From NCBI GenBank assembly GCA_963829055.1, contig CAWHHI010000006.1:224001-288000 (forward strand): a stretch of DNA of 64,000 nucleotides, written 5' to 3'. Under the pieces are notes generated by a model that worked only from the letters and a program-made list of their open reading frames with translations, was not told where the DNA came from and made no database searches. Both the position numbers and the translations under genes were made by a program. Below are positions 2 to 64,000 of the stretch, piece after piece. This stretch comes from an uncultured Gemmatimonadaceae bacterium (GTDB lineage: Bacteria; Gemmatimonadota; Gemmatimonadetes; Gemmatimonadales; Gemmatimonadaceae). Position 1 is the stretch's first letter, and every line of letters begins with the position of its first letter.

Positions 2-1114
2 GTCGCGGCCGGCAGGTCCGGGAACGCAGCGACAGCGGGCGAGCGGGACATCAACGAGCTGCTCCAGCTCGCGAGCGTGCCTGGGATGTCGATCGCGACC
101 GTGCGCGGCGCCAGTGTGAGCGTCGAAGGGTTCGGGGTCAGGCGCAGCGGCGGCACCGACGCCGTCACAGGCGACACCGTCTTCGAGGCCGCGTCGCTCA
201 GCAAGCCGGTGTTCGCGTCGATCGTCATGCAGCTCGCCGCCGAAGGGGTGATCGACCTAACGCGACCGCTCGGCGAATACCTCCCGCTGCCGAATCCTGG
301 CGACGAGCCGTCGAAGCTCATCACGGCCACGCACGTGCTCAGTCATTCCGGCGGCTGGCGGAACTGGCGGAACAGCCGCGACGTCGCGCTCACCGCGGAC
401 TTCCCGCCAGGCTCTCGCTTCTCGTACTCGGGCGAGGGCTACTTCTTCCTCCAGCGGGTGGTGGAGAAGCTCACGGGTAAGGGCCTGCAGCAGCTGTCGC
501 GCGAGCGTGTGTTCGAGCCGTTAGGCATGCGAAGCAGCGGCTACCTCTGGCGCCCCGAGCTCGACGCGAAGATGGCGGCGCCACACTCGAACCGGGGGCA
601 GCCCGGCGACAGCAACAACGCGAAGATGGGCCGCGCGTTCCAGGGACTCGTGGCCGAGATGGGCAAGCCCGTGGACCAGTGGACAACCGTCGACGTGGAG
701 AAGGCACTGCCGCGCGTCGATGCGAATATCCCGGTGCTTCCGAACTTCCTCGTACCGAACGCTGCGGCATCGCTCCTGACGACGGCGCGCGACTACGGAA
801 CGTTCGTCCAGTGGCTGCTCGGCGCGGGCCCGGTACAGGGCGGTCGCGCGGTGCTGGATCGCATGATGGTCCAGCGCTCGACGATCAATCCAGCGTTAGG
901 CTGGGGCAGCGGCATCGGACTCGAGCAGGCGGGCGGTCGCCGCTATGTCTGGCACTGGGGCGACAACTTCGGCTTCAAGAACTTCATCGTGGCCGAGCCG
1001 TCGGCGGGAACGGCGATGGTGATCTTCACGAACGGCCAGTCCGGCCAGCGCGTCTACGAGCGCGTCATCAGATCGCGGACGGGTGTGGACCATCCGGCGT
1101 TTCTCTGGCTGTGA
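2..1114 (+). CDS. Serine hydrolase, beta-lactamase/AmpC-like family (5' end outside window)
   Basis: SxxK (AASLSKP), FSYSGEGY and HWG motifs; frame open from base 2. Confidence 0.9.
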   Translation, partial: VAAGRSGNAATAGERDINELLQLASVPGMSIATVRGASVSVEGFGVRRSGGTDAVTGDTVFEAASLSKPVFASIVMQLAAEGVIDLTRPLGEYLPLPNPGDEPSKLITATHVLSHSGGWRNWRNSRDVALTADFPPGSRFSYSGEGYFFLQRVVEKLTGKGLQQLSRERVFEPLGMRSSGYLWRPELDAKMAAPHSNRGQPGDSNNAKMGRAFQGLVAEMGKPVDQWTTVDVEKALPRVDANIPVLPNFLVPNAAASLLTTARDYGTFVQWLLGAGPVQGGRAVLDRMMVQRSTINPALGWGSGIGLEQAGGRRYVWHWGDNFGFKNFIVAEPSAGTAMVIFTNGQSGQRVYERVIRSRTGVDHPAFLWL

Positions 1115-1121
1115 CCAGGGT

Positions 1122-1260
1122 GTCATCCCGAATGCCAGCGCATTGTCATCCCGAGCGGACAGTCGAGGGATCATTCGGCGAAGTCACTCGTCGCCATGAC
1201 GAGGAGCAATCGATGCAACTCCGAGAAGCATCCCTCGTCGCTGTCGCTCCTCGGGATGCC
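1122..1260. repeat. Nested-hairpin REP/MITE-like element, variant copy (GTCATCCCGAG...CTCGGGATG)
   Basis: Outer IR and GAGGGAT/ATCCCTC inner IR; left end duplicated at 1122 and 1145; between convergent genes. Confidence 0.75.
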
Positions 1261-1281
1261 CGACCGCTGCGCCGGCTGACG

Positions 1282-1680
1282 TTACTTCGAACAGAGGTAC
1301 TGTAGCGCCACGTCAGGCAGCGTCGCCTTGATCGCCGGGCCGAAGCCCGGTTTGCCCGGCGCCGAGTGCTGGTAGATCCGGTTCGTCTTCTCGTCGTGGT
1401 AGTACGTGTTCTCCTTCACCGCCACCACCTGCTTCTTGCAATCGAACATCGCCACCGTGCGTGACGATGTGATCGGACCGTTAGGCGTCGCCACCGGCTT
1501 CACGAACGCCACCCGGAGCGTCGCCGTGATGATGCCGGCGGTGTCCTTCTTCACGCTCTTCGGATCGACGAGGACCGGATTCCCGATCCCCGTCTTCCCG
1601 ATCTCCTGCCACTTCGTCTGCTTCGTCTGAACGACGAGCGAGCACAGGGTCGCGAGCACGAGCAGGCGCATCGGCACCAC
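1282..1680 (-). CDS. Exported hypothetical protein (surface-adhesin E-like)
   Basis: Hydrophobic signal peptide; W...vD..Sv and FDC pattern typical of this fold. Confidence 0.6.
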   Translation of the reverse strand: MVPMRLLVLATLCSLVVQTKQTKWQEIGKTGIGNPVLVDPKSVKKDTAGIITATLRVAFVKPVATPNGPITSSRTVAMFDCKKQVVAVKENTYYHDEKTNRIYQHSAPGKPGFGPAIKATLPDVALQYLCSK

Positions 1681-1795
1681 GATTGAGGTCTACGTCCTTC
1701 GTGAGATATGGCCAGTCACGACTCGTCAATCAGTCGTCAGGTGCAGGTGTCAGGCATCAGTACCGCGCATCGCATGCTGTGTTGCGTGCCATTGC

Positions 1796-62184: not shown

Positions 62185-62261
62185 GCTCTGGCGGCGCGCG
62201 CCGCGGACGTGACAACATTGGCGGACACGTCAGTCACCACGAGAGCCACCGCGAGGTCGCG

Positions 62262-63503
62262 TTGCACGTTCCCGCGCACAGCCGTCGAGACTTCCTTCAC
62301 ACGCTCGGCGCACTCTCCGCCGCCGGTCTTGCGCCGCCGATCGGGTGGAGCACCGTCGCGGCGAGCCCACGCGTCGCTCGCGGCCTCGCGCTCGGCCCCG
62401 ACGATTTCGCGTTCGCGCCCGGACTCGTCTACCTGCAGACCGGATCCCTCGGCCCCACGCCGCGGCCGGTGATGGAGCAGACGATCGCCGCCTGGAAGAA
62501 GCTCGAGCTCGATCCGGTCGCGTACGGCTATGGTGAGCACGAGCACGCGATGGACGAGGTGCGAGCGCAGGCGGCCGCGTTTCTCCACTGCAAGACCGAG
62601 GAGCTCGTGCTGACGCGCTCCACCACCGAGGGAATGAACTGGGTCGCGCAGGGCCTAACGCTCGCGGCCGGCGATCACGTGTTGACCACCGACCAGGAAC
62701 ATCCTGGTGGACGCGTCTGCTGGGACTACGTCGCGCGCCGCTATGGCGTGATCCTGGACGTCGTCGCGATTCCTCCGGGCGAGAACGACGCGCACGCGAT
62801 CGTCGATCGGATGGCGAAGGCCATCACACCGCGCACACGCGTGCTGTCGTTCTCGCACCTGCTCAGCTCAACGGGACTCCGGATGCCGGTGGCCGAGCTG
62901 TCGGCGCTGGCGCGGTCGCGCGGGTGCATCGCGGTGGTGGATGGCGCCCAGGCGGTCGGCGGGATTGCGGTGGACGTGAAGGCGTTAGGCTGCCACGTGT
63001 ACGCGACGAGTGGGCACAAGTGGCTGCTCGCGCCGAAGGGAACGGGCCTGCTGTATCTGAGTGAGGAGCTCGGGAAGGCGGTCGACCCGATCGCGCTGCA
63101 GGGCGGGCGCGCGGCTTACTCGGAATCGTCAGGCGTCACGAGCATTCCGAGCGTGTTAGGCATGGGCGCCGCGATCACGTACATCTCGACCATCGGGATC
63201 GGCGCGGTCGAGTCGCACAACCTGGGTTTGAGGAACCGCCTGTTCGCTGCGCTGCAGGGCGTGCCGAAGCTGCGCGTCGTCAGCGCGCCGCCAGGCCCAC
63301 TCGCGTCACCGCTGCTCACGTTCCAGCTGCCGGACGATATCAAGAGCGACGAGCTCCACACGCGCCTTCGCGAGAAGCATTCGGTCCAGCTCAAGGTCGT
63401 TCCGAAGAACTGGCTCAACGGAAACCGCGTGTCCACGCACCTCTTCAACACGACCGCTGACGTGGACGCGCTCGTGGCGGCGCTGAAGCAGGAGCTGGCC
63501 TAA
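62262..63503 (+). CDS. Tat-exported class V PLP aminotransferase
   Basis: SRRDFL signal; TRSTTEG, DGAQ and SGHKWL motifs. Confidence 0.9.
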   Translation: MHVPAHSRRDFLHTLGALSAAGLAPPIGWSTVAASPRVARGLALGPDDFAFAPGLVYLQTGSLGPTPRPVMEQTIAAWKKLELDPVAYGYGEHEHAMDEVRAQAAAFLHCKTEELVLTRSTTEGMNWVAQGLTLAAGDHVLTTDQEHPGGRVCWDYVARRYGVILDVVAIPPGENDAHAIVDRMAKAITPRTRVLSFSHLLSSTGLRMPVAELSALARSRGCIAVVDGAQAVGGIAVDVKALGCHVYATSGHKWLLAPKGTGLLYLSEELGKAVDPIALQGGRAAYSESSGVTSIPSVLGMGAAITYISTIGIGAVESHNLGLRNRLFAALQGVPKLRVVSAPPGPLASPLLTFQLPDDIKSDELHTRLREKHSVQLKVVPKNWLNGNRVSTHLFNTTADVDALVAALKQELA

Positions 63504-63509
63504 CGACGA

Positions 63510-63627
63510 GTCATTCCGAGCGGAGCGCCGAAGGCGCGGAGTCGAGGAATCGAGACTGTCCGCCGTAGAGGGCCCCTCTATCGGGACGATCGCGATTCCT
63601 CGACTCACTTCGTTCGCTCGGAATGAC
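63510..63627. repeat. Nested-hairpin REP/MITE-like element
   Basis: Full outer and inner IRs. Confidence 0.9.
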
Positions 63628-64000
63628 AACCTTCATGACTCCCAGCGTCGCGTCGAACGGACCGCCGAGCAGGGAGCCGGGCGTCGCGCGCGCGAGCGCG
63701 CGGAACTCTCGCGTCATGTGCGCCTGGTCGGCGTACCCGGCCACGGCGGCGACCTGCGATAGCTTCATCACCGTCCTCGCGTGCCGGACCTCCGTCAGCA
63801 CACGCTGGAAGCGCAGCATGCGCTGCATCACCTTGGGCCCGAAGCCGAGCGCCGCGGTGAACCGGCGACGGACCTCGCGTGGCGACCAGCCGAGCCGCGC
63901 GCAGAGGTCGTCGACCGTGGCGGCCGGATGACGCGCCAGCCAGGCGACGCCGAACCCGACGCCGTCGTTAGGCGCCGCCGCGACGATGCGGGGCAGCAGG
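63511..64000 (-). CDS. AraC-family regulator, 3' part (reads through the REP-like element)
   Basis: GFGPK...R.LRFQ and AGYADQAHMTREF...TP motifs; 5' end outside window. Confidence 0.85.
   Translation of the reverse strand, partial: LLPRIVAAAPNDGVGFGVAWLARHPAATVDDLCARLGWSPREVRRRFTAALGFGPKVMQRMLRFQRVLTEVRHARTVMKLSQVAAVAGYADQAHMTREFRALARATPGSLLGGPFDATLGVMKVVIPSERSESRNRDRPDRGALYGGQSRFLDSAPSALRSE

Follow-up and report, generated by a model that had tools for sequence, protein, structure and literature searches.

Short DNA words repeated at high density through a chromosome are known from several settings. DNA uptake sequences (DUS) belong to the Neisseriaceae, where the receptor is the minor pilin ComP, and uptake signal sequences (USS) to the Pasteurellaceae. 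HIP1 (GCGATCGC) of cyanobacteria is a palindrome linked to methyltransferases, a hyper-abundant octamer that is spread through genes by substitution, is patchy among relatives and has no settled function. To our knowledge, experiments have explained hyper-abundant "self" words in just two families, both proteobacterial. Integrons have a core site with the consensus GTTRRRY / RYYYAAC, which is bound by IntI. Here we describe the word CCTAACG (CGTTAGG on the opposite strand), which is found about once per kilobase in a 64-kb stretch of Gemmatimonadaceae DNA (hereafter the window, positions 224001-288000 of contig C6 in its genome assembly, G000) and throughout that genome, and which has the sequence of the R box of integron attC sites.

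Excerpts of two papers describe the behavior of the uptake words. A relatively even distribution of USS at about 1 kb is given there as the expected result of uptake drive (PMC7811141), a DUS spacing near 1.1 kb is said to match conversion tracts (PMC2397512), and both words are rare in acquired DNA and in ribosomal RNA (rRNA) genes (PMC2397512, PMC7811141). For CCTAACG we found no published description in the full-text literature, with subscription journals outside our coverage, in agreement with a reading of the window from its letters alone (the sequence-only reading), which had taken the word for an undescribed signal.

Abundance and placement of the word

The window holds 66 exact copies of CCTAACG or CGTTAGG, 36 on the plus strand and 30 on the minus strand, the first at 256-262 and the last at 63966-63972. 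The sequence-only reading had estimated about 66 heptamers by eye, and its example coordinates agree with ours within one base. The enrichment it claimed is borne out against a null model, as 100 dinucleotide-preserving shuffles of the window gave a mean of 2.72 words (standard deviation 1.79, maximum 9) and none of the 100 reached 66. The abundance extends to the whole of G000 (7,784,024 bp in 20 contigs, 65-67.5% G+C per contig, 86% complete), which contains 7103 copies of CCTAAC, 6391 of CCTAACG and 5004 of GCCTAACG. The density of CCTAACG is 0.82 per kb overall and lies between 0.64 and 1.09 per kb on all 20 contigs. Most CTAA and TTAG tetramers had been claimed to lie in the word, and genome-wide 7103 of 8933 lie in CCTAAC. 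One-letter variants of similar composition have only 16-700 copies; among them, CCTAACA, a transition at the CpG, has 462, versus 157 and 93 for the other letters at that position. A maximal-order Markov model gives a ratio of about 1 for the word, which tells nothing here, as copies of the word account for its own sub-words. Hyper-abundance in both the window and the genome is confirmed.

The words of the window are listed here as exact matches to CCTAACG (plus) or CGTTAGG (minus), in window coordinates.

256..262, plus, word CCTAACG in beta-lactamase-family open reading frame (ORF) 77-1111
519..525, minus, word
894..900, minus, word
1479..1485, minus, word
1977..1983, plus, word
3491..3497, plus, word in HEAT-repeat ORF on the minus strand
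4032..4038, plus, word
4278..4284, plus, word in HEAT-repeat ORF 4268-5401 (minus strand), read CG-TTA-GG
4746..4752, plus, word in HEAT-repeat ORF 4268-5401 (minus strand)
4932..4938, plus, word in HEAT-repeat ORF 4268-5401 (minus strand)
5028..5034, plus, word in HEAT-repeat ORF 4268-5401 (minus strand)
5297..5303, minus, word in HEAT-repeat ORF 4268-5401 (minus strand)
5341..5347, minus, word
5658..5664, plus, word
9716..9722, minus, word
11053..11059, minus, word
13619..13625, minus, word
15308..15314, minus, word
17178..17184, minus, word
18662..18668, plus, word
19400..19406, plus, word
20991..20997, plus, word
21915..21921, plus, word
22137..22143, minus, word
22577..22583, minus, word
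25244..25250, minus, word
25785..25791, plus, word
26331..26337, plus, word
26760..26766, minus, word
28192..28198, minus, word
29938..29944, plus, word
30191..30197, minus, word
31230..31236, plus, word
31254..31260, plus, word
32175..32181, plus, word
35396..35402, plus, word
35838..35844, minus, word
36979..36985, minus, word
37840..37846, plus, word
38456..38462, minus, word
39542..39548, plus, word
39989..39995, plus, word
40777..40783, minus, word, covered by short-read contigs
41491..41497, minus, word, covered by short-read contigs
42516..42522, plus, word, covered by short-read contigs
43686..43692, minus, word in fumarate reductase/succinate dehydrogenase flavoprotein gene, kept in 2 of 3 aligned congeners
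45393..45399, plus, word in iron-sulfur subunit gene, absent in 3 of 3 aligned congeners (CCCGACG/CCCGACC)
47350..47356, plus, word, covered by short-read contigs
48571..48577, minus, word, covered by short-read contigs
49571..49577, minus, word, covered by short-read contigs
50492..50498, plus, word
50954..50960, plus, word
51749..51755, plus, word
53463..53469, plus, word
54315..54321, minus, word
55922..55928, plus, word
57574..57580, plus, word
58772..58778, plus, word
60359..60365, minus, word
60618..60624, minus, word
60976..60982, plus, word
61203..61209, minus, word adjoining a palindromic dispersed repeat
62654..62660, plus, word
62983..62989, minus, word
63499..63505, plus, word at the end of aminotransferase ORF 62262-63500 (CC-TAA-CG)
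63966..63972, minus, word

An alignment of all 6391 genomic sites carries information at the seven core letters and at position -1 (G 78%, A 13%), and beyond these nothing but the three-base rhythm of coding DNA. Because the flanks are not conserved beyond one base on either side, we rejected the possibility that the word is part of a longer repeat.

Coding statistics come from a simple gene caller that reaches only 75% of G000 (coding fraction 0.75), a shortfall due to the many single-base indels of the assembly. The use of rare codons in several frames, which the sequence-only reading had noted, is found across the called genes, where the word is read as xCG-TTA-GG (1589 copies), CCT-AAC (1192), C-CTA-ACG (776) and GTT-AGG (523). 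Its two remaining frames, which contain a stop, are nearly unused (14 and 5 copies), and 2292 sites are non-coding or at gene edges. More than half of the TTA codons (1589 of 2840, 56%) lie within the word. It also supplies 278 of the 838 TAA stops and 226 of the 1750 TAG stops of called genes, extending to the genome the GCC-TAA type of stop first claimed for the window. After shuffling of synonymous codons, which preserved each protein and the codon usage of each gene, the called coding sequence retained 344 +/- 15 words (20 shuffles) against 4093 in reality, and whole-codon shuffles (n=10) left 183 +/- 14. The word acts at the DNA level, in several frames, in non-coding DNA and against codon habits.

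Neither strand is preferred, as had been said of the window. The genome-wide counts of CCTAACG are 3154 and 3237, and relative to genes 1982 words are sense and 2117 antisense. Orientation is independent of GC skew, with 1172 plus and 1260 minus words where the skew is positive and 1771 plus and 1750 minus where it is negative, and its correlation with gene strand skew is negligible (Spearman -0.03). Neighboring words share an orientation in 3293 cases and oppose each other in 3078, which is near random, and orientations are also mixed in stretches of 81-100 kb from four other word-rich genomes. The strand, GC-skew and neighbor counts show no polarity with respect to replication or transcription. 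Apparent same-strand runs in two genomes of genus g55 proved to be an effect of how the words were listed, the fetched DNA being mixed (26 plus and 25 minus; 30 plus and 32 minus). Spacing is more even than Poisson, with 413 gaps of at most 200 bp seen versus 978 expected, 81 of at most 60 bp versus 311, and a median gap of 883 bp.

At the other end of the scale, six gaps between words exceed 10 kb, versus 1.5 expected. The three largest of these deserts (C6:5440-55038, C11:1-44055 and C6:591808-623330) measure 31-50 kb, and all lie at contig ends. Their tetranucleotide distance is 0.0175-0.029 versus a median of 0.0064, with a shift in the same direction on one principal axis. Among their genes are those for chorismate synthase, DAHP synthase, FtsK, FolD and leucyl aminopeptidase as well as trp and aro genes, and second copies of the desert housekeeping genes occur elsewhere in the assembly at 46-58% identity. 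The foreign composition, taken with the second gene copies, indicates that the deserts are probably large acquired segments or mis-joined DNA of another organism. The depletion in islands that the sequence-only reading had raised is thus seen in three deserts of foreign composition, which act as an internal control and mark the word as a signature of the lineage rather than a sequencing artefact. The rRNA operon of G000 also contains no word.

A sequencing artefact is ruled out on other grounds as well, since a finished PacBio genome has the word, as do well over a hundred assemblies and the short-read contigs of four studies. Short-read contigs from four public runs (four studies) cover window positions 40001-50000, which hold eight words, and among the 40 best-supported of the 170 differing places in this interval none falls inside a word. 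The same comparison gave single-base gaps or insertions at about 12 places, roughly one indel per kilobase. Split ORFs are seen in the window, for example at 11273-12028 (protein kinase) and 16436-17533 (DUF4953), and many genes lie in two frames; these broken genes are assembly errors, not pseudogenes. Contigs with at least half of the sampled words of positions 40001-50000 were present in 20 public metagenome runs from 16 studies, mostly of rhizosphere and also of soil and freshwater sediment. The organism or close strains of it are therefore widespread.

Identity with the attC R box and distribution among genomes

The sequence-only reading had pointed out that the word fits the integron core-site consensus, and the correspondence with actual sites is closer than a fit. 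G000 encodes an IntI (C20:208041-208958, 265.7 bits, just above the curated cut-off) and has about ten attC hairpins of 50-130 nt at C20:119252-205190, whose R boxes are GCCTAACG/CGTTAGGC and whose form is GCCTAACGC-AAGTTGAGCTGC...GCAACG-ACGTTAGGC. Beside intI at 39 loci, an attC finder that counts both strands, so that its figures are hits and not sites, gave 32 hits in 10 of 21 loci from word-rich genomes and 33 hits in 9 of 18 loci from word-poor ones. In rich and poor genomes alike, R'' is (G/A)CCTAACG and R' is CGTTAGG(C/T). The sequence CGTTAGGC is present in 22 of the 32 rich and 16 of the 33 poor hits, and the variants include CGTTAGGT, CGTTAGAC and TGTTAGGC. Judged by sequence, the word is identical to the attC R box (R''/R'), with the flanking C/G and the terminal Y included. 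The attC of aadA7 contains CCTAACGC and GCGTTAGGT in published primers given in an excerpt of PMC12614218, and the R box is therefore not peculiar to this family.

The great majority of genomic words have none of the further parts of an attC site. There are about 70 attC-like hits (both strands) among the 6391 words of G000, so that fewer than about 1% lie in attC-like hairpins, and pairs of the form CCTAAC...GTTAGG at a distance of 35-150 bp number 80 in the whole genome. Across the flanks of the 6391 sites, the genomic words do not form an inverted R''/R' pair with L boxes and a hairpin. Eleven same-strand words beside the intI of G000 (C20:209.8-218.2 kb) were considered as a cassette array and rejected, as they have no partner box and their contexts look coding. 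Word density inside cassettes was looked at in only three arrays. Most of the attC hairpins of G000 lie on the side taken as downstream of intI, and its layout as a chromosomal integron is thus uncertain.

We counted the 8-mer in 40 relatives to begin with, and afterwards in 250 genomes (68 genera) of the same family. A genome has either a baseline of roughly 5-60 copies, below the roughly 100-400 of a reversed-word control, or hundreds to thousands. Of the 250 family genomes, about 77 have at least 400 copies and about 55 at least 1000. All seven genomes of the window's genus are rich (2501-5112 copies), and the densest genome, G195, has 7821 copies in 6.1 Mb. Five genomes in the survey tables (G013, G053, G099, G246 and G261), flagged as unpublished, have at most 138 copies each, and no claim made here depends on them. 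Much of the baseline of word-poor genomes comes from attC-like arrays; G027 and G025, for instance, have runs of copies in one orientation at intervals of about 600 bp, and G049 and G209 have attC-spaced inverted pairs of the word.

The family has switched repeatedly between the two states. Genus g56 includes five genomes with 3244-4141 copies and two with 66 and 8. An RpoB tree of 22 genomes calls for at least five state changes, five being forced by well-supported branches, and on it the word-free G258 is the sister of the word-rich G067; three long-branch rows of the tree are unreliable, because over-long ORFs were taken. Within rpoB itself, all 13 rich genomes examined have between 2 and 10 words, and 11 of the 12 poor genomes have none. 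Four conserved Ala/Pro-Leu-Gly sites of the gene are written xCG-TTA-GGC in 7-10 rich genomes scattered over the tree and with CTC or CTG in every poor genome. Where rpoB is less constrained, the word alters the encoded residue, as in changes of Phe to Leu, of Asp to Asn and of Met to Leu. No substitute hyper-abundant word was found in nine of nine word-poor genomes sampled at 25-40 kb each. One candidate, in G007, was rejected as merely a local 13-bp tandem array with 40 copies genome-wide. The arrays in question (G007:C1:27525-28215) are two inverted sets of six and seven copies of the 13-bp GAGCGTAACTGAR, about 500 bp apart, and look like replication-origin iterons or a regulator binding array.

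Comparison with congeners shows how the positions of the words persist. Over 128 kb aligned between G000 and its congener G005 at 79.9% identity, 55 of the 90 words of G000, or 55 of the 97 of G005, are conserved in place. Phase-matched control 7-mers at most 150 bp away are conserved in 25% of cases, and words are kept 2.3 times better (p about 1e-10 to 1e-13). The partners of non-conserved words are mostly CCTGACG, CCGAGCG and CCGAACG. Of five word positions in the window's fumarate reductase operon, one is common to three of four congeners, and the other four are species-specific. This excess conservation, together with the species-specific positions, indicates that the word is both maintained and turned over. 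The frame-independent, genome-wide signal that had been proposed from the window is thus seen across the genome, without skew and in relatives too.

The word is not confined to one phylum. We scanned a public species collection with a three-word pattern and checked the resulting loci by whole-genome counts. Only the loci in metagenome-assembled genomes (MAGs) of Chthoniobacterales/Verrucomicrobiae have dispersed words in mixed orientation, and four Verrucomicrobiota MAGs contain 4562 (3.2 Mb), 5186 (4.3 Mb), 1465 and 1155 copies, with controls at about 230-300. In the order around the first Chthoniobacterales MAG, the count is above 900 in three of 61 sampled genomes, that MAG included, and a fourth has 352 copies. 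The form differs slightly between groups, the Chthoniobacterales word being a 9-mer with A at +7 in 90% of 146 copies and Gemmatirosa words having G at -1 in 99% of 251 copies. For co-variation of these flanks with attC, Chthoniobacterales offered a single attC-like site, beside the one intI. An Armatimonadota MAG has 77 copies, mostly in two co-oriented clusters.

Most hits of the three-word scan, spread over many phyla, were tandem arrays that repeat at about 72 bp or 280 bp, and these were set aside as unrelated to genome-wide abundance. Co-oriented copies of CCTAACG every 72 bp or so, in Haliangium, several cyanobacteria, Thermoguttaceae and Blackallbacteria, look like CRISPR repeats containing the word. 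Copies every 275-285 bp in Flavobacteriaceae, Dehalococcoidia and a gammaproteobacterium look like tandem protein-domain repeats.

Candidate readers and rival explanations

In density, strand symmetry, use of frames, even spacing, scarcity in acquired DNA and rRNA genes and excess conservation, the word agrees with published accounts of DUS and USS (PMC2397512, PMC7811141), and the only mechanism known to us that builds such a pattern is biased transfer of word-bearing DNA. For this reason we rank first, as a tentative preference, a self-tag of the DUS/USS kind that is maintained through biased exchange of DNA and whose specificity was taken over from attC. On this reading, (G/A)CCTAACG = CGTTAGG(C/T) would be a DNA-level "self" tag that shares its sequence with the attC R box and that point substitutions have placed roughly once per kilobase along the chromosome of some lineages, this genus among them. 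The substitutions would create rare synonymous codons, amino-acid changes that can be tolerated and stop codons, and would also fall in non-coding DNA. Word-bearing DNA would be favored at uptake or recombination, and word-bearing alleles would replace word-less ones through molecular drive, perhaps aided by selection; a single word in each exchanged fragment would be enough, which would lead to even spacing. A preference of the uptake or processing machinery for the attC R box may favor cassette-bearing DNA, with the word driven through the chromosome as a by-product. Biased exchange as the force, a specificity borrowed from attC and the existence of a protein reader are all things that we infer. 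The coincidence with the attC R box, combined with the occurrence in a second phylum, is negligibly probable as chance, so the source of the word's specificity must be the integron system or else a reader of that system. Excerpts of PMC12614218 describe how natural transformation in Vibrio supplies single-stranded DNA to integron recombination and how a chromosomal integron excises and recruits cassettes from single strands delivered by transformation, which provides a rationale for a tag shared with attC.

We searched for a reader with profiles of about ten families in a panel of 24 word-rich and 24 word-poor genomes. ComEC is present, and intact, in all 24 rich genomes versus 22 of the 24 poor ones, DprA in 47 of the 48, and type IV pilins in all 48; ComEA-like hits, every one under the curated cut-off, occur in 42. 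G000 itself has ComEC, DprA and four type IV pilin genes. Matches at least 71% identical to the G000 pilin are limited to genera g1, g9, g36, g69 and g73, which are nearest to G000 on the RpoB tree, and so follow phylogeny rather than the trait. One observation does hint at transformation: the comEC of the word-free G258 (C61:11521-13496) aligns to that of its sister G067 in two frames and lacks about 130 nt in the channel domain. In the poor genomes G023 and G062, ComEC and ComEA-like matches are both missing, but the tally of missing or damaged ComEC (0 of 24 rich, 3 of 24 poor) is not significant.

Several of these results and others weigh against a tag maintained by biased exchange. Competence genes are as common in poor genomes as in rich ones and therefore do not explain the on/off pattern, and no receptor for the word was found among the families profiled in the 24 rich and 24 poor genomes. 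The altered comEC of G258 comes from a single MAG and could be an assembly error instead of a pseudogene, and G120, the other word-poor congener, has an intact ComEC match. No published uptake or transformation experiment for these bacteria was found in open full text. Close inverted, terminator-like pairs of the word show no excess genome-wide in G000. Unlike DUS and USS, whose sequences differ between families, the core word is common to two phyla, and the same core is hard to obtain twice by chance, which points to a conserved reader such as IntI. Finally, a separate contig of 20,952 bp in a four-contig, word-rich genome (G058:C4) carries 18 words in both orientations at 0.86 per kb, with the large contigs of that genome at 0.35-0.95 per kb. 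Uptake drive fits such an element at full density only if it shares the recombination history of its host.

Two side observations follow. The first is a second abundant element of G000, a palindromic dispersed repeat of about 134-170 bp with 389 BLAST hits and a fold of -59 kcal/mol, copies of which lie at window positions 61051-61197 and 52964-53108 and at L309:785-1357. Its arms hold GTCATTCCGAGCG / CGCTCGGAATGAC, the 12-mer GCTCGGAATGAC has 669 copies, and the repeat resembles published Ssn-related hairpin motifs of Neisseria. The second is a small single-domain GIY-YIG ORF (C3:952-1167, open frame 99 aa) with GGGATGAC variants on both sides, a layout that is the one described for ssnA, a nuclease that cuts incoming single-stranded DNA in transformation.

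As an alternative to an uptake-related reader, IntI itself might read the words, a possibility that we rank second and hold to be real but doubtful. The words would then be double-stranded copies of the attC R box and sites for an IntI monomer. They could serve as dispersed sites for landing or secondary recombination, supply the raw material of new cassettes and attC sites, or buffer IntI. No protein other than IntI is known to us to bind the attC R box, and the word equals R''/R' both in the attC hairpins of G000, which has intI, and in the intI-adjacent sites of relatives. The flank preference after GTTAGG (C 78%, T 13%) mirrors the Y of GTTRRRY and the attC variants, and the hyper-abundance of the same core in the four Verrucomicrobiota MAGs speaks for the same reader. 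However, IntI is equally present in poor genomes: matches above the curated cut-off come from 14 of the 24 rich and 16 of the 24 poor genomes. Among additional members of the rich genera g55, g9 and g36, IntI is present in 4 of 5, 2 of 3 and 2 of 2, so the gaps in IntI are mostly assembly gaps. Nor does the IntI tree (38 rows) sort by the trait, as rich and poor genomes interleave, with 11 changes versus a shuffled mean of 12.8 and 89 of 500 shuffles as low. No rich-specific gene family adjoins intI at the loci examined. More than 99% of words are without partner box, L box or hairpin, and recombination-competent sites at every kilobase inside genes would presumably be harmful, with cleavage-driven conversion expected to erase them. 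Genomic insertion sites (attG) need only GWT and have a structure unlike attI and attC, according to an excerpt of bioRxiv 10.1101/2022.09.11.507474. In sum, the sequence-only reading had looked to methyltransferases, competence proteins and IntI for a correlate of the word, and neither competence genes nor the presence or phylogeny of IntI tracks it.

Third in rank, and in our view unlikely, is that the word is a cytoplasmic self/non-self tag, which would protect DNA from a nuclease or recombination machine after entry, or direct such a machine, in the manner of Chi without its polarity. Host DNA and resident mobile elements would then be selected to carry it. The host-level density of G058:C4 would suit such a tag, as would the absence of the word from foreign-looking DNA and the megaplasmids of Gemmatirosa kalamazoonensis, which have 147 words in 250 kb, all of them the 8-mer, at 0.4-0.65 per kb. 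On plasmid 1 (NZ_CP007129:1-150000) the series of word orientations recurs over roughly the first 100 kb; the apparent clustering of orientations is due to a 53-kb tandem repeat (PMC3974934). Against a tag of this kind, no candidate machine was found, RecC is limited to 4 of the 48 panel genomes, one of them rich, and the word has no strand polarity. Viral contigs, in two three-word scans of low sensitivity, gave two loci with local same-strand arrays and then none, and no dispersed words.

A more far-reaching proposal, and one to which we give little weight, is that the chromosome is formatted in integron syntax, with one protein, either IntI or an uptake or processing factor that recognizes the attC R box, reading the 8-mer on cassettes and chromosome. 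If this were true, any ordinary gene lying between words 0.5-1.5 kb apart would be favored for uptake and exchange, and might also be captured as a proto-cassette. The word-rich Gemmatimonadaceae and Chthoniobacterales would be birthplaces of integron cassettes and attC, and transformation would be linked to integrons.

A word driven by methylation or mismatch repair, as might apply to HIP1, is improbable. Here a methyltransferase would mark the word, and a short-patch repair linked to it would turn near-matches into the word. CCTAAC has what we take to be the shape of an asymmetric adenine-methylation site, and CCTAACA is the commonest one-off at the CpG, but PF00145, PF02384, PF01555 and the Vsr family PF03852 have no match in G000 (86% complete; other methyltransferase families were not searched). 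The word is also missing from the single-molecule real-time (SMRT) methylome of Gemmatirosa kalamazoonensis, which contains only RGATCY, ATGCAC and CCAGN7TCA, by a method blind to 5-methylcytosine (PMC3974934); this speaks against a mark by adenine or N4-cytosine methylation. The genome-wide DNA signal proposed by the sequence-only reading stands, and among the roles it offered, namely uptake, a methylation or repair drive, a nucleoid-protein site and a recombinase site, the methylation or repair drive is disfavored. A polar chromosome signal, either Chi (RecBCD/AddAB) or an FtsK-orienting polar sequence (KOPS), is barely credible, since the word shares with such signals its form as a non-palindromic 8-mer of high copy number but the lack of skew, the near-random orientation of neighbors and the mixed strands in four other rich genomes come close to refuting it, with RecC absent from 23 of 24 rich genomes (AddAB was not searched).

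Whatever its role, the word has consequences for genome analysis, as it distorts codon usage and stop-codon choice and marks foreign or mis-binned DNA in MAGs. It could serve to assign contigs, plasmids or phages to hosts. The case sits in abundant and poorly studied soil phyla, and the repeated on/off switching within one family suits genome comparison aimed at the responsible gene. A cultured strain with a finished genome carries the word, which makes uptake, pull-down and knockout tests feasible. Integrons are the main gene-capture system of bacteria; if the coincidence with attC is functional, DNA uptake or self-recognition would be tied to cassette exchange, with a bearing on the unsolved origin of integron cassettes.

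Comparison with described systems

The closest parallel is with DUS and USS. Like them, CCTAACG is a short, non-palindromic word that occurs about once per kilobase, equally on both strands and in tolerant frames, is relatively even in distribution, is rare in acquired DNA and rRNA genes and is conserved above its surroundings. G000 resembles DUS and USS hosts in having transformation genes, but its word-poor relatives have them equally. The word differs from DUS and USS in lying outside the Proteobacteria, in showing no excess of inverted terminator pairs, in being identical to the core of the recombination site of a mobile-gene system and in switching on or off at least five times within one family.

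HIP1 is likewise a hyper-abundant octamer that substitutions have spread through genes and that is patchy among relatives. It is a palindrome and has methyltransferases linked to it, whereas the present word is asymmetric, with no methyltransferase of the four families in G000 and no methylation of the word in the SMRT methylome. Chi and KOPS are also asymmetric, over-represented octamers, which DNA-processing machines read, but are skewed with replication and far less enriched, whereas the word is unskewed and RecC is mostly absent. Compared with integron attC and attI sites, the word is identical in sequence to R''/R', and its genomic copies are isolated double-stranded 8-mers in ordinary genes. 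Unlike attC, these copies have no partner box, L box, hairpin or cassette, and their abundance is not tied to the presence or lineage of intI.

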